64,000 nucleotides of DNA from Candidatus Uhrbacteria bacterium (GCA_016188475.1 JACPHT010000008.1:150192-214191), one strand, 5' to 3'; positions 988-37,203 are shown, numbered from the stretch's first letter. The notes: generated by a model not told the origin, from the sequence alone. Numbers and translations are program-made.

Positions 988-1965
988 TGTACAGTAACCC
1001 TTCAAGGGTGACAGTTTAGTGGGTTAGGGAGAGATATTTCTCATAAGGAGTAAGACCGTCCATGCCTTTTCCAAGGTGTGGTCTTTGGTTGTTATACCAA
1101 TTTGTATATTGAGAAATGGTTTTCCAAGGACGGTTGAAGTTTAGATAGAACTCATCATCAACGGAACGATTAGCACGTTCAACCTTTCCATTCCATGGAG
1201 CAGAACGTTTAGGAATATAACGATGAGGAATGTTTCGTTTTGTGAGGTAGTTATGGAAACATCCTCGAAACTCTCCTCCGTTATCTGTTTGAATCCATGT
1301 AATGGAGAAAGGTAGTGAACGCTCGGCTCTAAGTAGCGCCTGAATACTCATCTGTGCTGTCTTAAGTGGAAGTGTCACAGAATACTGCATGTTTGTAACA
1401 GTATCTACAAAACGGAACTGATAGTTCCACCATCCTTCACCATCTGGCACATATTTCACATCTAATTGCACGTTTTCTCCTGGATTTGTTGCTTTGTATG
1501 GTTTCTCCATTGGGTTATACCAAATCTGCTTCTTTTGAGGCTTACGGATGAGATGTTTCTTTTTCATGAACCTGTAAATGTTCTTGGCAGATATCTCGAC
1601 TCCTGTTTCACGCTTAAGGTACACACGCATCTTCTCTGGACCATAATTGTACTTCTCTTTAGCCTCAACAAGCAGAACACGAACTCTGTCTTTAATCTTT
1701 GTGTGTGGATGTTCTCTTCTGTTCTTATATCTGTTTCCAAGAAAACCGTGATCACGCTTGTACCATTTGTAATAGGTCTTTCTTGAGATCCCATAAATAT
1801 CGCATACTTCAGGAACATTCATTCCTTTTACTTCTACCTGACGGTACCAACGGAATCTAAACTCACGAGGAGCTGCTGGGGTATGATTTTTAGGCATATT
1901 TCAAGGGAGTTACCCTTTGTTACCCCTAACCTAGCAGATTGTCACCTCATAAGGGTAACTGTACA
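988..1965 (-). mobile_element. Complete IS481-family insertion sequence, 978 bp
   Basis: 15-bp terminal inverted repeats TGTACAGT(A/T)ACCCTT at 988-1002 and 1951-1965; 5-bp direct duplication GTACC at 983-987 and 1966-1970; single DDE transposase ORF inside. Confidence 0.8.
1016..1897 (-). CDS. IS481-family DDE transposase (HTH plus rve integrase core)
   Basis: 293 aa with an N-terminal HTH region and the motifs WQTDNGGEF and NGKVERANRSV typical of the rve core. Confidence 0.85.
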   Translation of the reverse strand: MPKNHTPAAPREFRFRWYRQVEVKGMNVPEVCDIYGISRKTYYKWYKRDHGFLGNRYKNRREHPHTKIKDRVRVLLVEAKEKYNYGPEKMRVYLKRETGVEISAKNIYRFMKKKHLIRKPQKKQIWYNPMEKPYKATNPGENVQLDVKYVPDGEGWWNYQFRFVDTVTNMQYSVTLPLKTAQMSIQALLRAERSLPFSITWIQTDNGGEFRGCFHNYLTKRNIPHRYIPKRSAPWNGKVERANRSVDDEFYLNFNRPWKTISQYTNWYNNQRPHLGKGMDGLTPYEKYLSLTH

Positions 1966-4021: not shown

Positions 4022-4787
4022 GATTACAAACTTAAACGAACACAAATTTCTTCGTGTATTAAGCGCGCTTGTTCTTGTCATGCTATCTTTGTTTCTTATT
4101 TTCAAAACTTGGCAAACACTACGCGAGGCAATACAGGTTGGCAAACCAACACCGAACGAGTTCACAATCAGCGTTGATGGTGTTGGTAGAGCAGAAATAA
4201 AACCTGATATTGCAAAGGTTACGTTTTCTGTTGAAACAAGAGAAAAAACCCTTGAAGTTGCGCAAAACAAAAATTCAGAAAATATGAATGCTCTGATTGA
4301 AAAAGTTAAATCACTCGATATTGACAAAAAAGATATTCAAACAAGCACCTACAACGCTTACGAAGAAAAAAAATACGATCCGCAAACTGGAACTTATGGG
4401 AACACAATCAATTGGGTCGTTAATCAAAGTATCGATTTGACAATCCGTGATCTTGAAAAAGTTTCGTCCGTTTTAGAAATAGTGGGACAAAACGGCGCAA
4501 CAAATATCTCTGGACCAAATTTTGCTGTTGAAAACGATCAGACTGCTCTTGATGAAGCGCGTCTTGCCGCAATCGCTGACGCAAAATCACGCGCACAAAC
4601 AATCGCCGAACAACTAGGTGTCAAACTGCGATCACCAATAAGTTACACTGAATGGAAAGATGGGGGCGGAATAATTTATTCCAACACTGCAAAAGCAGAA
4701 AGCGTGTCTGCCACACCACCTACAATTGAAGAAGGCCAAGAACAAGTCACGGTTCACGTTAGTATTAGTTACGCGATCAAACAATAA
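4022..4787 (+). CDS. SIMPL-domain (DUF541) protein with an N-terminal TM anchor
   Basis: Good overall resemblance to SIMPL/26 kDa periplasmic immunogenic proteins; the start was chosen at the internal M ahead of the hydrophobic segment (the track ORF starts at 3927). Confidence 0.55.
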
Positions 4788-5938: not shown

Positions 5939-6220
5939 ATGAAAAAAGCCATTCACCCAGAATTTTACGATGATGCGAAAATAACTTGCGCATGCGGAAC
6001 TGTCTACGAGGTCGGCTCAACAGAGCAAGAGATTGATGTTGAATTGTGCGCGGCATGTCATCCATTCTACACTGGAGAACAAAAGATCATTGACACAGCT
6101 CGACGTGTTGAGAAATACAAAGCACGTTCAGCGCTAAAAACAACAAAAACAACCGGAAAGAAAGTGAAGCGTGAAAAACGAGCAACTCAAAAAACAGCAA
6201 AACGAGCAAAAGAAGCTTAA
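5939..6220 (+). CDS. rpmE: 50S ribosomal protein L31 with a Lys-rich C-terminal tail
   Basis: MKKAIHPEFYDDAKITCACGTVYEVGSTEQEIDVELCAACHPFYTG. Confidence 0.9.
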   Translation: MKKAIHPEFYDDAKITCACGTVYEVGSTEQEIDVELCAACHPFYTGEQKIIDTARRVEKYKARSALKTTKTTGKKVKREKRATQKTAKRAKEA

Positions 6221-6330
6221 CAAAACCAAAAGCGTCTCTCACTTTGTGAAAGGCGCTTTTATGTTATTATTAAAATAATAAAATCCCTTACCACTCGCCC
6301 CTTTTCACTCGCCCACTGTCTTCAAAAACT

Positions 6331-7398
6331 ATGTCCCTACTCGATAAACTACAATCTACAAAAAACCGATTTCAAGAACTCGAATCGCAACTCTCTGCGC
6401 CCGAGATTCTTTCAAATCCAAAAAAACTGCGTGAGGTTAATGAAGAATACTCGGATCTAAAAGAAGTTATTGACATTGCAAAGCGGTATGAAAAAGTGCT
6501 GGCGGATTTAAACGGAGCAAAAGAAACTCTCAAAGAATCAACAGACGAACAAATGCGCGAATTAGCTCAAACTGAAATCGAAACCTTGGAGGCCAGACTT
6601 CCATCGCTTGAAAGAGAGCTCCTGTATTCTCTTATTTCACCTGATCCAATGGATAAAAAAAATACGATTGTTGAAATTCGAGCTGGCGCAGGAGGAGATG
6701 AGGCCTCGCTTTTTGCGGCAGAACTTATGCGTATGTATATGCTCTACGCAGAGCAACAAGGATGGAAAACAGAACTCATTTCCTCAAATAGAAACGAAAT
6801 CGGGGGATTTAAAGAAATCATTTTGACAATCAAAGGTCACAATGTTTATAGCCGGCTCAAATACGAAAGCGGAGTACATAGAGTTCAACGAGTGCCAGAA
6901 ACCGAAAAACAAGGTCGTGTGCATACTTCAACTGTAACAGTCGCAATCTTGCCTGAAGCGGAAGAAATAGATGTACAAATCAAACCTGAAGATTTAAACA
7001 TTGAAGCAACAACAGCAGGTGGCCATGGCGGACAAAGCGTTAACACAACCTACTCGGCAATACGCATCACTCACATTCCAACTGGAATAATGGCGTCTTG
7101 CCAAGAAGAACGTTCACAAAAACAAAACAAAGAACGCGCTCTTTCAATTATTCGCGCGCGTGTGTTTGCTTTTGAACAAGAAAAAGCTCACAAGGAACGC
7201 GTAGAAGCGAGAAAAGGACAAATCGGAACCGGAGACAGATCAGAAAAAATCCGAACATATAATTTTCCGCAAGATCGAATTACAGACCATCGAATAAATG
7301 AAAACTTTCACAATATCACCGCTTTTATGAACGGCGGACTTGATGAATTGTTCGCGGCGTTGAAAGAAGCCGAGGTTGCGGAACAATTAGATCAATAA
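6331..7398 (+). CDS. prfA: peptide chain release factor 1
   Basis: GGQ motif (GGHGGQSVNTT) and RVPETE (the RF1 PxT region). Confidence 0.9.
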   Translation: MSLLDKLQSTKNRFQELESQLSAPEILSNPKKLREVNEEYSDLKEVIDIAKRYEKVLADLNGAKETLKESTDEQMRELAQTEIETLEARLPSLERELLYSLISPDPMDKKNTIVEIRAGAGGDEASLFAAELMRMYMLYAEQQGWKTELISSNRNEIGGFKEIILTIKGHNVYSRLKYESGVHRVQRVPETEKQGRVHTSTVTVAILPEAEEIDVQIKPEDLNIEATTAGGHGGQSVNTTYSAIRITHIPTGIMASCQEERSQKQNKERALSIIRARVFAFEQEKAHKERVEARKGQIGTGDRSEKIRTYNFPQDRITDHRINENFHNITAFMNGGLDELFAALKEAEVAEQLDQ

Positions 7399-7436
7399 AG
7401 AGCGTGTTTTGAAGAAACAGACTGACGACTTCTACA

Positions 7437-7518
7437 AAAGAGCGGTTGTATCGTGTCGTAGGGAACAACGGCGACAGTCCGATGGCCCGGAGACACGATA
7501 CAACCGCTCTTTTTTAAC
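7437..7518 (+). repeat. Long-stem hairpin element, copy 1, with conserved core GTCGTAGGGAACAACGGCGACAGTCCGATGGCCCGGAGAC; followed by a T-run, so it is a likely prfA terminator
   Basis: A ~20-bp stem (aagagcggttgtatcgtgtc / gacacgatacaaccgctctt) encloses the conserved core, then ttttttaacc. Confidence 0.6.
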
Positions 7519-7519
7519 C

Positions 7520-7541
7520 TTATCCACTGAATTGTGGATAA
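7520..7541. promoter_or_regulatory. Inverted pair of DnaA-box-like 9-mers (TTATCCAC-tgaatt-GTGGATAA), immediately upstream of the ncRNA promoter
   Basis: The minus strand reads TTATCCACA, a perfect DnaA-box consensus; the plus-strand half matches 8/9. Confidence 0.35.
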
Positions 7542-7549
7542 CTCAACTC

Positions 7550-7578
7550 TTGACATGTATTTTAAGTGGTAGTAAATT
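7550..7578 (+). promoter_or_regulatory. Sigma70-like promoter (TTGACA, 17 bp spacer, TAAATT) driving the GC-rich noncoding region
   Basis: Seen directly. Confidence 0.45.
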
Positions 7579-7584
7579 AGACGT

Positions 7585-8736
7585 TACCGTCAGTCAAGGC
7601 AACGCAAGTTGCAATGGCAGACAAGGCCTTCTTCGGAAGGCTGAGCCCCCCTTCGGGGAGATCGCGAAAAGGGCTGTACCGGTGCAAACTGGTCAAACCC
7701 TTCAAGCAAACGGCTCAAAAGAGCCGGCCGGCCTAAAACCGGATCATCCAGCGGAAACTTCGTCGCAAACACGTCTTTAAAAGATCCCGAAAGGGATTGA
7801 GATTCCAAGTAAAGATCCAGACTCCGAAAGGGGAAAAGATCTCAAAAAGGATCAAATAAGAATGTGGATGCGAAAAGCAAACAAAGCTGGACAAGTTGCG
7901 AAGCCCAAATGCTGGACAGAGGTTGGTCTTTCATCAGCCAAACGGAGCAACGGGTAACTCAAGCTCAAATGGCTGTTGATAGCCGATCGAAAACACATAA
8001 AAGGCTTCAAAAACTTGCGACTCGGTATATAAACCGGCGAAGGTCAGTGGTCCTCTTATCAGAGGATATCACTCAGCGAAAACCAGTGGTTCTTCGGAAC
8101 TCTAACGGTCGTAGCGTCTCAACGGGAAACCAATGAGAAGGAATAAATAGAGATAAGTCCTGTAAAAAGGATAAACTCTCCACCTGAGTGAGAAAAGAGC
8201 TTCGGCTCAACACCAGTGATCAGTCCATCTGAGGTTGAATTCCGCGTGTCTACTACTACTTGAATGCGCAAGCAAACAAGGAGCAGTGACAAAGGCGGAC
8301 TCCAGAGTAATCTGGATGTAGTGTCGAGAAATCGACATATATCAACACAGAGCCAATTCGACAACCGTTACAAGGTCTGGAGTCAAGGTGAAAACCTGAA
8401 ACTCAAGCCTAACAACCAGTTTTTTGGAGAAGCTCTTCGGGGCATCACCTTTAAACCAGTTGTGAAAGCAACAGCACCCTAGACGGAGCAACAAACGAAA
8501 GCGCGTTGTATGTCGAAAAGGAGTGGCCCGGGAGTAGGAATTAACTTGAAGTGATATATTGCGAAGTGTTTGGTGAGCGCCTTAACGGAGTTCCTGAACG
8601 CTGAACAGTGTTTCATCAATGGTTGATCCCTTCTCCCTGCCACTGGGCAAACCACATCTTCATGTCACTCTGATGGTCTCTACCATCTCTCCACCTCTTA
8701 ACGGCGCTCGGCTCCTCCGACGCCGTTCTTTTTTTA
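7585..8736 (+). ncRNA. Candidate large (~1.15 kb) highly structured ncRNA of unknown family
   Basis: No ORF longer than ~120 aa in any frame and markedly higher GC than its neighbours. Many short perfect stems are capped by UUCG or GNRA tetraloops (ccttcTTCGgaagg, ccccCTTCGgggg, gagcTTCGgctc, gttcTTCGgaac, atcccGAAAgggat, tgtcgaGAAAtcgaca, ggctcAAAAgagcc). It has its own promoter and ends at a strong intrinsic terminator. Confidence 0.55.
8700..8736 (+). terminator. Intrinsic terminator (aacggcgc-tcgg-ctcct-ccga-cgccgtt followed by T8)
   Basis: Seen directly. Confidence 0.6.
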
Positions 8737-9086
8737 TAACAACACTTAACTGATTATGTTATTATCAAATATGTCTCTGTTCGCCGACATCCGCAGACTG
8801 CTTGCGTAACCGTTTGGTTTACAACGTCGCCTCACACAGTCGAGGAGTCGAAGAGCTGTGAGAAGCCAACTGCTTGGCTTCGAACCTCTGAGACGGGCTT
8901 TGTCCGATGTTCGACATAGTTGTCGAACAGGACAGCCCCTAAGCCGCCACCACTCACACTGGCTATCATTTTCGACACACGGCGGCGGTCAAGAACAGAG
9001 ATATATTTGATAATAACAATCTGTCCATTCTCGAAGCCCTTCAATGGGCGAACAACAAACTCAAAAAAGCTGGCATTGAGTCTCCA

Positions 9087-9932
9087 ATGCTTGATGCGGA
9101 AGTTATCCTTTCGTATATTTTGGATTTGTCACGCGCTAGATTATTTGCTCACGGAAATGACATTCTAAAACCGCATCAACAAGAACGACTGTTGTCACTC
9201 ATTGAGCGTCGGTGTTCTTTTGAACCTGTCGCATACATAATTGGAGAAAAAGAATTTTATAATAGAAAATTCTTTGTTAATTCGTTCGTTCTTATTCCTC
9301 GCCCAGCAACAGAAACGCTTGTTCAAGAAGCTTTGGATATATCTAAAAATATCAACGACATAGAACACACATTGTTTGCTGACATAGGAACTGGTTCAGG
9401 AGCAATCGCGATCACACTTACATCTGAAACAAAAATTCCAGTTGTTGCGATAGACATAAGCTCTCGCGCACTTTCTGTCGCAAGAACAAACGCAAGAAAT
9501 CATAATGTTGAAGAACTCATTGACTTTAGAGAAGGCGACCTAATGATGCCGGTTGTTGATTTATTTGAATCAATGCGAGCGTCTTCAACACAACAGGTCT
9601 CATCGGTTTTTCCGTTCAAACATCTAATAATCTGCGCAAACTTGCCTTATCTAACCAATAACCAGATGGAGATACTTCAAAAAGACGTACGTTACGAACC
9701 AAAAGACGCACTGCAAGCAGGTCCGGATGGACTTGAGGCATATTGGCGGTTGTTTAAACAAATAAAGAAAATACGTGATTTTTTACCAAGATACATTTAC
9801 ACGCTAATTGAAATTGATCCATCACAATCCACTCGCGCTGTTGAACTTATCTCACATCAATTTCCACATGCAAAAACACAAATCAAAAAAGACCTTCAAG
9901 GTCTTGATCGAATTATTATTAGCGAGATCTAA
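9087..9932 (+). CDS. prmC: release-factor glutamine N5-methyltransferase
   Basis: SAM-binding motif DIGTGSGAIAI and NLPYL (an NPPY variant); it is the conserved partner of prfA. Confidence 0.85.
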   Translation: MLDAEVILSYILDLSRARLFAHGNDILKPHQQERLLSLIERRCSFEPVAYIIGEKEFYNRKFFVNSFVLIPRPATETLVQEALDISKNINDIEHTLFADIGTGSGAIAITLTSETKIPVVAIDISSRALSVARTNARNHNVEELIDFREGDLMMPVVDLFESMRASSTQQVSSVFPFKHLIICANLPYLTNNQMEILQKDVRYEPKDALQAGPDGLEAYWRLFKQIKKIRDFLPRYIYTLIEIDPSQSTRAVELISHQFPHAKTQIKKDLQGLDRIIISEI

Positions 9933-10984
9933 TTTTCGATTTTCAAATCCGAATCATCAGCGATCACTTCTATCCATGTTACTCCGGCGTTCAATTCAAA
10001 TTCATTTCCGTCCGTACCATAGAACCTTAGCCTGTTGCTTTCCGATTCTTTTTTCCAAATTCCTTCAAACTGTTTTCCATCGCGAAACAAAAACGCCTTC
10101 CCTTCTCCTATTGTTCGAACACTTCGACGGCCTACTGAATCTAAAATTTCAACATCCGTTACAATTACGACTATGTTATCAGACGCGATTTGTGATCCAT
10201 CTTCCGTAAGATGAACCGACCCGCTTTGTGAACGCAAATACCGGAGTGTTTTTGAATCAAAAATCCATTGTGTCACATAAGAAGGCTTGTCGAACGTAAC
10301 AGATATTTTTTTTACTTCTGGATCACCAGACAAATCCGCGTCTTTGAACTTCCAAATATCGTACAATCTTTTAGGCACGACTCCTGCCTGTTCTTTTGTT
10401 CCAATATACCGCTTCAGCAACTTTGTTGACGTATAAACATTGTGTGGCGCGTAACGATTAAGCGCGCGCCAAAAATATAAATCAAACCAATACTGATTCA
10501 AATCAAAAGTCCCGCCAGAGGAAATTTGATCAAGAGCTGAATCAGAACCTCCAACATGAACATATAGCCCATCAAGTTCGTTGTTCCAATCCAAAAAATA
10601 CGGACGCGCTGAACGAACCGGACCGATCTTATCCACATCTTGATCGTCTGAATAAAACGCAAGAAAACGAGAAATTCCAGCTTCAACTGGCGCTTCAATC
10701 ACAAGAAACGCCTTATCAATACCAGCTTGCGGCCAAGCGTCAATGTGATTATCTATCATTACACCAAAAACTTGTGGCAACTCCATTTGTTCGTAGATAG
10801 GAAATCCAGTTAAAGGATGACGACCTACTGAAACTTTAGACGAGCTATTGCCAGACGGTGTTGATGATGAAACTTTTTCAACAAGCCCAGGCAAACGCGC
10901 CGCAAACAAAAACGCAATCGCGATGGCAATTGCCACGATTGCGTAATATGTTCTTGTATTCAAATTAAGCTTTAACTTTTTCAT
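9929..10984 (-). CDS. DUF3048 (YerB-like) secreted/anchored protein
   Basis: Signal/TM segment MKKLKLNLNTRTYYAIVAIAIAIAFLF followed by a DUF3048-like core; its start codon overlaps the last codons of rplY by 20 nt. Confidence 0.55.
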   Translation of the reverse strand: MKKLKLNLNTRTYYAIVAIAIAIAFLFAARLPGLVEKVSSSTPSGNSSSKVSVGRHPLTGFPIYEQMELPQVFGVMIDNHIDAWPQAGIDKAFLVIEAPVEAGISRFLAFYSDDQDVDKIGPVRSARPYFLDWNNELDGLYVHVGGSDSALDQISSGGTFDLNQYWFDLYFWRALNRYAPHNVYTSTKLLKRYIGTKEQAGVVPKRLYDIWKFKDADLSGDPEVKKISVTFDKPSYVTQWIFDSKTLRYLRSQSGSVHLTEDGSQIASDNIVVIVTDVEILDSVGRRSVRTIGEGKAFLFRDGKQFEGIWKKESESNRLRFYGTDGNEFELNAGVTWIEVIADDSDLKIEN

Positions 10985-35540: not shown

Positions 35541-35623
35541 AAACAGAAGCGATAGCGTCATGTCGTAGGGAACAGCGGCGAGGAGTCCGCTGGCCCGTAG
35601 ACATGGCATGTCGCTTCTGTTTG
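35541..35623 (+). repeat. Long-stem hairpin element, copy 2 (core GTCGTAGGGAACAGCGGCGAGGAGTCCGCTGGCCCGTAGAC)
   Basis: Same core as copy 1 in a different, self-complementary stem. Confidence 0.6.
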
Positions 35624-36955: not shown

Positions 36956-37017
36956 GTCATTGCGAGGAGGAGTAAAGCGACGACGAAGCAATCTGACCCA
37001 TTGGGTCATTAGATTAA
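36956..37017. repeat. Partial copy of the GTCATTGCGAGG...GCGACGAAGCAATCT nested-palindrome family
   Basis: Matches the copies at 45530-45612 and 55811-55891. Confidence 0.5.
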
Positions 37018-37096
37018 AAAAGAGCAGTTTGTACTATGTCGAAGGGAACAACGGCGAAGAGTCCGTTGGCCCGGAGACATGGTACAAACTGCTCGA
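37015..37096 (+). repeat. Long-stem hairpin element, copy 3 (core GTCGAAGGGAACAACGGCGAAGAGTCCGTTGGCCCGGAGAC); acts as a terminator for the minus-strand gene 37204-37815
   Basis: 20-bp stem; the A-run on the plus side is a U-run on the minus transcript. Confidence 0.6.
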
Positions 37097-37203
37097 GAGA
37101 CCCCTCGGCTCAACGCTAAACTCGCTCGGGATGACAAAATAAAAAAAGAACTCTGCTAAATGACCCAATGAAGGATCAAAGACACAAAGTCCAAAGAGTG
37201 AAC

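Follow-up and report, generated by a model that had tools for sequence, protein, structure and literature searches.

It is very rare for a bacterial RNA other than ribosomal RNA (rRNA) to combine a length above 500 nt with a conserved complex fold (PMC5737381), and the large examples of the past have been ribozymes, ribonucleoprotein scaffolds and, recently, RNA-only nanocages (PMC12286853). GOLLD, many members of which exceed 800 nt, forms such RNA-only nanocages (PMC12286853); ROOL, with an average length of 581 nt, multistem junctions and few highly conserved nucleotides (PMC5737381), is known from several phyla and associated with phages and tRNA islands (PMC12286853, PMC5737381); OLE is a large structured RNA which works with partner proteins and also dimerises alone (PMC12286853); and the raiA motif RNA is described as chromosomal and widespread, with a conserved multi-stem architecture and a function still unknown (PMC12968392). 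The stretch of DNA analysed here, 64,000 nt of a Candidatus Uhrbacteria genome (GCA_016188475.1 JACPHT010000008.1:150192-214191; hereafter the window, with positions counted from its first letter), most likely encodes at 7585-8736 on the plus strand, between the release factor gene prfA and the methyltransferase gene prmC, an RNA of this size class which is characteristic of Candidatus Uhrbacteria.

That a real, independent structured RNA gene lies at this place is, in our assessment, highly probable. The full statement, to which a probability of roughly 0.6 is assigned, is that of a stand-alone, vertically inherited large structured RNA which acts in trans as a scaffold and whose transcription is linked to DnaA. 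Such an RNA would be transcribed from its own strong sigma-70 promoter and stop at its own intrinsic terminator as a discrete stable molecule, with prmC transcribed separately from its own, often extended, -10 element. The transcript would fold into four nested domains with long-range closing helices, many GNRA- or UUCG-capped hairpins and a pyrimidine-rich (C/U) tail, peripheral hairpin modules being dispensable around a conserved core; the folded RNA probably acts in trans as the scaffold of an RNA-protein particle or of an RNA-only assembly of the OLE/ROOL/GOLLD sort, and DnaA may couple its synthesis to the replication status. A scaffold is suggested by the large size, the core with dispensable and duplicable hairpins, the many GNRA loops, which are typical tertiary-contact elements, and the exposed C/U tail; a ribozyme of known type or a cis-regulatory leader is considered unlikely.

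Conservation and folding of the RNA

By its PrmC, the window belongs to Candidatus Uhrbacteria (Patescibacteria, Candidate Phyla Radiation). The comparison covers 24 further loci, gathered by PrmC look-ups, a genome scan and a metagenome scan for a sequence pattern; their PrmC proteins are between 90% and 52% identical to that of the window. All 25 Uhrbacteria/Patescibacteria loci display the same order of DnaA box, -35/-10 elements, non-coding body, hairpin with T-run and prmC. The distance from prfA to prmC is at least 700 nt in every locus with both genes, the non-coding stretch measures 536-1171 nt in 19 loci and 777-1083 nt in four more, and a hairpin followed by a T-run closes it in every locus. 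An earlier note on this DNA had described a unit inserted between prfA and prmC; as all relatives examined share the layout, the RNA is ancestral to the lineage and not an insertion in the window genome. The search for homologs in relatives which the same note had proposed was carried out, and they were found at the same place upstream of prmC, with compensatory changes in two clades.

Nucleotide identity of the RNA to four relatives amounts to 78-81% as compared to 45-60% at the four-fold degenerate sites of prmC, which puts the constraint on the sequence at about the level of the adjoining coding DNA; for L008 the respective values are 60% and 42%. These values place the RNA under purifying selection.

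In the window clade (alignment A2, six sequences, structure by RNAalifold), the consensus comprises 315 pairs with 91.3% of the cells paired, and pairs in which both partners have changed number 40, versus 17.7 +/- 3.3 in 500 column shuffles, none of which attains 40, and 10-18 after the partner has been slid by 1-3 columns. The distant group D (alignment A5, four sequences) gives 162 pairs with 94.6% paired and 23 such double-change pairs, versus 8.8 +/- 2.3 after shuffling and 2-4 after sliding, so that the margins over the slid controls are large in both clades. G.U cells outnumber A.C cells by 160 to 43 and the paired fraction falls from 91.3% to 84.8% if the minus strand is assumed, which shows that the constraint acts on a plus-strand RNA and not on DNA palindromes. 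GNRA or UNCG loops cap 15 of the 22 hairpins of the consensus fold, where a random tetramer would be GNRA in about 4% of cases, and these loops are kept while their free positions vary (GCAA/GUAA/GAAA; N and R).

Folding of the window sequence by itself points in the same direction as the earlier note, which had judged the hairpin density to be beyond chance: the first 976 nt of the RNA body reach z = -10.1 against dinucleotide shuffles versus z = -0.5 for an equal length of prfA, and 8 of the 18 UUCG/GNRA hairpins with a perfect stem of at least 4 bp on the plus strand of the window lie within 7.6-8.4 kb. All eight hairpins listed at that time are present, although the count of at least a dozen shrinks to about eight perfect ones, and the body, then called far richer in GC than its flanks, shows a moderate excess (0.45-0.51 vs 0.37-0.44). 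The span, originally drawn at 7437-8990, likewise contracts to the RNA proper at approximately 7585-8736, as its margins belong to a repeat (7433-7516) and an insert (8757-9018). The sigma70-like promoter proposed at 7550-7578 was recovered with 10 of 12 consensus positions as the top-scoring site within 6000-10000, and the terminator placed at 8700-8736 was found at 8701-8736 in both the minimum free energy (MFE) and the consensus folds.

The four domains (Table 1) differ in how far the alignments speak for their helices. Domain 1, which comprises helices 2-7 of the consensus fold and opens with the 5' motif UUACCGUCAG common to many groups, has three double-change pairs in each of helices 3 and 4. 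Domain 2 contains the longest invariant stretch, AACAAAGCUGGACAAGUUGCGAAG, and most of its core pairs are invariant and so neither supported nor contradicted. Relative L007 is devoid of two Domain 1 hairpins at 7627-7662 and has deleted the interior of Domain 3 (8061-8211) with retention of the closing helix. In Domain 4, UCGAC at 8358-8362 pairs with GUCGA at 8512-8516, and a long arm at 8522-8644 is closed by AGUGGC...GGGAG and CUCCC...GCCACU. The C/U tail which follows is unpaired in the consensus fold and has one 6-bp stem-loop at about 8672-8687 in the MFE fold; its letters are not conserved in relatives, and a C/U-rich stretch stands at the equivalent place in other groups. The terminator hairpin, 95.7% paired with two double-change pairs, had been missed by a simple terminator scan because of a one-base bulge in its stem.

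Relatives differ from each other by whole hairpin modules which were gained, lost or tandemly duplicated. In L009 (approximately 4200-4600), roughly 190 nt of a multi-hairpin module are internally duplicated in tandem, and L016 and L017 carry a duplicated four-hairpin module (A5 columns 133-232 and 360-455). As a separate observation, 8364-8400 reads CGUUACAAGGU...GAAAACCUG and, together with CACCUC of the tail, loosely recalls by eye the 3' end of 16S rRNA (anti-Shine-Dalgarno region, helix 45); rRNA models score nothing there, and the likeness is held unproven.

How far the groups form one family was addressed with a covariance model (R1) built from 8509-8651, the Domain 4 arm, which recovers the element at the right place and on the right strand in L026, L030, L010, L009, L031, L014 and L032, with rough E values (expected chance matches) from 3e-5 to 0.016. 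Between 11 and 13 of the 13 sequences keep each of its closing pairs, with the exchanges GC/AU, UA/CG and GC/CG. Being a single long arm, the model also gives matches on the opposite strand and at 37010-37100, where an unrelated hairpin lies, and it did not reach groups D, E and F. Searches for motifs of a universal core (GUCCAUC, CCACAAGC, GGAACCC and others) gave group-specific motifs only. The 5' motif UUAC(C/G)(G/U)UCAG is present in most groups, Domain 4, the 3' domain, and the closing helices persist, recognisably in the window-type groups, groups D and E share modules as judged by eye, and group D displays the order of closing helix, single strand, C/U tail and terminator seen in the window. 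Taken from these partial resemblances, common ancestry of the most distant groups is likely but not proven.

The RNA body also proved non-coding, as had been supposed: no reading frame is conserved, each of the six frames contains 10-20 stop codons, the substitutions versus the closest relative distribute over the codon phases as 69/67/68, and 21 of 23 indels would shift a reading frame.

Promoter, DnaA boxes and rival explanations

The predicted promoter of the RNA is accompanied by a feature which went unnoticed in the earlier note. A consensus DnaA box (TTATCCACA) adjoins it in 25 of 25 loci, in the window as an exact consensus 9-mer within a palindromic pair of boxes, the columns of which are nearly invariant among close relatives. 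The 8-mer TTATCCAC occurs in 33 copies in 197 kb of 22 loci, where about 6 are expected overall, and 29 of the 33 are located at the RNA promoter, as are two of the three copies in the window. The third copy, TTATCCAC(A), lies in the DUF3048 gene (window 10629-10637, L006 4406, L012 5605), is shared with the two closest relatives only and is probably a chance or codon-driven match. The -35 and -10 hexamers of the window are unchanged in the three close relatives aligned, and TTGAC(A/G/T) as -35 with a plausible -10 is found at the equivalent place in every locus.

Distances between DnaA box and -35 fall into classes of 8-9, 16-17, 27, 31, 38 and 49 bp over the 25 loci, which, the 31-bp class excepted, are steps of roughly one helical turn, a pattern as given by a factor that touches RNA polymerase from one face of the DNA. 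With respect to this spacing, the window has lost about 30 bp (TTTTTCAAAAAC...GATTTTACAG) between the DnaA boxes and the -35 (7542-7549 vs L006 1207-1244), a stretch kept in most window-type relatives; as a result the box stands 8 bp instead of 38 bp ahead of the -35, the spacing of the distant groups D and E. The 9-mer TTATCCACA is the classical DnaA box, which stands near the sigma-70 promoters of DnaA-regulated genes such as dnaA, sda, ywlC and others, and DnaA is established as both activator and repressor (PMC8203912, PMC4447404). As a consensus box always precedes the -35 by at least one helical turn, DnaA is the predicted transcription factor that would tune synthesis of the RNA.

A bolder version, which is tentative and clearly less probable than the full statement, sees in the RNA a new giant class (to about 1.17 kb), core and vertically inherited in these reduced cells, under direct control of DnaA, which as an RNA-only or RNA-protein assembly would tie a cellular process to the replication status. 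This process may be translation, as suggested by the fixed place between a release-factor gene and a methylase gene and by a C/U tail which is anti-Shine-Dalgarno-like in some members.

Several points weigh against the reading as a DnaA-linked scaffold of a single family. BLAST between groups detects almost no shared sequence, so that homology of the whole family relies not on one global alignment but on the shared position and promoter layout, on the 5' motif and on partial similarities that form a chain; a family-wide consensus structure is not claimed, as the global MAFFT alignment of 19 RNAs is untrustworthy outside close groups and the cross-group BLAST is near-empty. The covariation figures, drawn from six plus four related sequences with structures predicted from those same alignments, are somewhat overstated, and many core long-range helices are invariant within the window clade, which leaves the pairing there without a covariation signal. 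Promoter, terminator and transcript ends are predicted from sequence patterns. No sign specific for a scaffold, such as a linked partner protein gene, was found at the loci, the neighbours being ordinary housekeeping genes. The terminator is 20-300 nt away from prmC, which leaves room for an effect on prmC in cis; the 31-bp spacing breaks the helical phasing; and one or two DnaA boxes could serve a purpose at the DNA level unrelated to the RNA.

The main rival, an unlikely one in our estimate, takes the RNA as a giant cis-acting leader of prmC, an attenuator or riboswitch-like element with 8701-8736 as its regulated stop. The RNA is indeed always directly upstream of prmC and co-oriented with it, even where another gene separates it from prfA, the distance from its terminator to the prmC start shrinks to about 20 nt in L006, and prmC needs a promoter since prfA has its own probable terminator. 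Typical described bacterial leaders are, however, several times shorter than 536-1171 nt, and the size of the RNA varies two-fold; most loci have a plausible, often extended, -10 (TGnTATACT-like) between terminator and prmC, and in the window the 262-nt insert splits the terminator from prmC, apparently without harm. Pairing of an anti-terminator is not apparent, and no riboswitch family of Rfam matches. Based on the -10-like element after the terminator and the tolerated insert, the RNA is read as a unit separate from prmC.

Less probable again is a divergent or expanded form of a known RNA such as GOLLD, ROOL, OLE, raiA, RNase P RNA, transfer-messenger RNA (tmRNA), signal recognition particle (SRP) RNA, 6S RNA or a group I or group II intron. 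Evolution of the RNA is fast, with groups that are not BLAST-alignable, and divergence could hide a known core from covariance models. On the other hand, the 4227 models of Rfam 15 at gathering score retrieved from the whole window only three tRNAs, far from the RNA; when the limit was relaxed to E up to 10 for 7300-9150, the hairpin at 7433-7516 drew some microRNA-like noise and nothing else appeared; and scans of seven diverse homologous loci at E up to 1 gave no match within the RNA. According to ARAGORN, 7300-9100 is free of tRNA and tmRNA genes, which together with the lack of an Rfam match speaks against tmRNA, and in the same way RNase P RNA, SRP RNA and 6S RNA were set aside for want of an Rfam match; all four are 2-3 times shorter than this RNA. 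An intron of group I or II was rejected as well, since there is no Rfam match, the RNA is situated between complete genes, interrupts none, and has its own predicted promoter and terminator; among the called genes of the loci there is no reverse transcriptase or homing-endonuclease gene. Nor is there a phage or tRNA-island context: 7580-9010 has no blastn match in 50,697 phage records, and the pattern of promoter plus 5' motif has 0 matches in viral contigs and only four in metagenome contigs, including one locus that had been collected before. A literature search gave no description of this RNA, a prior description being possible as not all journals were covered. Absence of a family assignment in the earlier note thus held up when the Rfam comparison it had called for was run; of the GOLLD/ROOL/OLE look it had attributed to the RNA, likeness of kind remains, and membership, tested for each family, does not. 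The RNA is of the informal kind called large ornate bacterial non-coding RNA but belongs to none of its families.

An accumulation of palindromic repeats or mobile elements at this spot, or some other feature of the DNA itself without a functional RNA product, is very improbable. Palindromic elements do flank the RNA on both sides (7433-7516 and 8757-9018), and hairpin modules come, go and duplicate between relatives. Yet the body has no second copy within the window, as would be seen for dispersed repeats of the repetitive extragenic palindrome or miniature inverted-repeat transposable element (REP/MITE-like) type, its nested long-range helices surpass local palindromes, the G.U excess over A.C would not be seen in DNA palindromes, and a sequence conserved well above four-fold sites, with loops kept as GNRA/UNCG, is bracketed by promoter and terminator in 25 loci.

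Slightly more remote still is a primarily DnaA-binding DNA element, either an origin or a titrating site like the Bacillus DnaA-box clusters, to which the RNA would be secondary. No feature of the locus is more constant than the perfect DnaA box, and gyrB is located about 5 kb away, but one or two boxes do not make a cluster, the cumulative GC skew has no turning point near 7.5 kb, and the box is phased to a promoter downstream of which 0.5-1.2 kb are under RNA-level constraints. For lack of a skew inflection and of a box cluster, a replication origin at the locus is unlikely.

A gene for a protein, intact or as a pseudogene and perhaps on the opposite strand, can practically be dismissed, because the public antisense gene calls (L030 2154-2849, minus strand, 231 aa; L032 1803-2210, minus strand, 135 aa) and a 123-aa open reading frame (ORF) overlapping the 5' end of the RNA in the window have no Pfam match, the antisense ones lack conserved protein counterparts in the nearest relatives and so look like annotation artefacts of an unrecognised RNA, and stop codons in every frame, missing codon periodicity and indels mostly not in threes oppose coding. 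A stand-alone structured RNA gene is the preferred reading.

Gene neighbourhood and palindromic elements

The gap between prfA and prmC holds five separate parts, namely the post-prfA hairpin, the DnaA boxes, the promoter, the RNA and the 262-nt insert (Table 1).

Table 1. Coordinates of the RNA, its domains and the flanking features in the window
Feature	Position	Strand	Remarks
Large structured non-coding RNA	7585-8736	+	5' end predicted from the -10, 3' end at the T-run of the terminator
Domain 1	7589-7726	+	Five consecutive hairpins capped GCAA, UUCG, UUCG, GCAA, AAAA
Domain 2	7727-8038	+	Long-range closing helices 7727-7745 / 8019-8038; helices 8-22
Optional hairpin module, 53 nt	7799-7851	+	Inside Domain 2; clean presence/absence in alignment A2; window and L007 only
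Domain 3	8042-8221	+	Optional; closing helix 8042-8051 / 8212-8221; helices 23-32
Domain 4	8223-8648	+	Best-conserved part; GUCC 8223-8226 pairs with GGGC 8645-8648; helices 33-56
Pyrimidine-rich (C/U) tail	8649-8700	+	Between Domain 4 and terminator; largely unpaired; contains CACCUC
Predicted intrinsic terminator	8701-8736	+	Bulged GC-rich stem, 5-nt loop, T7; helix 57
Predicted sigma-70-type promoter	7550-7578	+	-35 TTGACA, 17-nt spacer, -10 TAAATT
Palindromic pair of DnaA boxes	7520-7541	.	TTATCCAC-tgaatt-GTGGATAA; second box is TTATCCACA on the minus strand
prfA (peptide chain release factor 1)	6331-7398	+	Upstream neighbour; 355-aa ORF; Pfam PCRF and RF-1 in an identical protein from Logan contigs
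prmC (release-factor glutamine methyltransferase)	9021-9932	+	Downstream neighbour; 281-aa ORF from ATG 9087
Long hairpin, 25-bp arms and T-run	7433-7516	.	Inverted repeat I2; dispersed palindromic repeat; outside the RNA
262-nt element	8757-9018	.	26-bp inverted repeat I1, 96% complementary; between RNA terminator and prmC

The earlier note had estimated the gap at about 1.7 kb without a long ORF. In the window, the conserved PrmC N-terminus begins at a CTG at 9021 and the earliest ATG is 9087, and the PrmC proteins of relatives, of about 303 aa, align with the window from 9021 onward; with the end of prfA at 7398, the true gap is therefore 1622 nt. Its longest ORF, of 123 aa at 7409-7780, crosses a terminator hairpin, the two DnaA boxes and the promoter, and a Pfam search with it gave no match. 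The estimate was thus confirmed in its main points. No in-frame ATG, GTG or TTG precedes 9087 within 9021-9087; the start codon at the position equivalent to 9021 is ATG in L007, GTG in L006 and CTG in the window, and the PrmC of several relatives is also called 22 residues short (280-282 aa). Some relatives have a -10-like element about 7 nt ahead of the prmC start codon, which hints at leaderless prmC mRNAs.

The flanking gene order is rpmE-prfA and prmC-DUF3048-rplY in all loci, with prfA, prmC, the DUF3048 gene and the L25 gene as neighbours of the RNA. In many loci an NTP-transferase gene separates prfA from the DnaA box, from which it follows that the RNA unit travels with prmC and not with prfA. 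Apart from this, GyrB of L009 (10231 onward) has 922 aa with an intein-splicing domain versus about 670 aa in other loci, and 4.4 kb upstream of prfA in the window a 293-aa ORF (1016-1897, minus strand) with Pfam rve integrase-core and helix-turn-helix domains is probably an insertion-sequence transposase.

Of the two palindromic elements, the hairpin at 7433-7516 probably terminates prfA. Partial copies of it are found at 37015-37087 and 35558-35603 (84% and 87% identical), and short-read contigs of the window organism end or begin inside it; the equivalent hairpin after prfA in L006 carries an extra internal insert. The 262-nt element, which folds with z = -10.4 and is absent from the equivalent place in L006, L007, L008 and L012, is a separate mobile-looking insert and not part of the RNA. 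As its inner piece (8844-8910) resembles the insert in the post-prfA hairpin of L006, the two palindromic elements may be one mobile family.

Comparison with known systems

Cells of the Candidate Phyla Radiation (CPR) are tiny and uncultured, with stripped-down genomes. That such a genome keeps a non-coding RNA of 0.5-1.2 kb at one locus lineage-wide argues for an important job. The constant DnaA box makes for a concrete, testable tie between replication control and a non-coding RNA, and the family illustrates the evolution of large RNAs through addition, deletion and duplication of hairpin modules around a conserved core. A family model would also improve the annotation of Patescibacteria genomes, where gene callers put spurious ORFs over the RNA.

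Structured RNAs which end in a terminator directly upstream of a co-oriented gene, here prmC, are familiar as terminator leaders and riboswitches; the Uhrbacteria RNA differs from them in being many times larger, in its two-fold length range and in the promoter-like element after the terminator. At the promoter, the arrangement of a consensus 9-mer TTATCCACA close to a sigma-70-type promoter is that of DnaA-regulated promoters, where the DnaA regulon described (PMC8203912) consists of protein-coding genes and operons as opposed to the large non-coding RNA predicted here from sequence alone.

Among the large RNAs, GOLLD is alike in being a stand-alone bacterial non-coding RNA of the same size class with a multi-domain ornate fold and many capped hairpins, and its nanocage is one model for what a scaffold RNA of such size can do. 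The Uhrbacteria RNA, which with its maximum of 1.17 kb exceeds typical GOLLD members in length, has no match to the GOLLD model and is located not in a prophage, phage or tRNA-island context but at a fixed housekeeping locus of a CPR lineage behind a DnaA-box promoter. Low sequence conservation combined with high structural content is shared with ROOL, the model of which does not match either; in contrast to ROOL, the Uhrbacteria RNA turned up nowhere but at the prmC locus of Uhrbacteria-like genomes, and it reaches twice the length. Non-coding nature and a conserved multi-stem architecture are common to the raiA motif RNA and to the Uhrbacteria RNA, which lacks a match to the raiA model. The raiA RNA is several-fold smaller.

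The closest precedent for a housekeeping-type scaffold RNA is OLE. It has dedicated partner genes such as oapA and belongs to a host lineage different from Uhrbacteria; the Uhrbacteria RNA has no match to the OLE model, and no oapA-type gene is among its Pfam-labelled called neighbours. With a length above about 500 nt without coding potential and a multi-junction structure with compensatory changes, observed in few sequences, the RNA takes its place among the large ornate bacterial non-coding RNAs, within which it is set apart by its CPR host, the fixed housekeeping synteny, the DnaA-box promoter and the two-fold plasticity in size.

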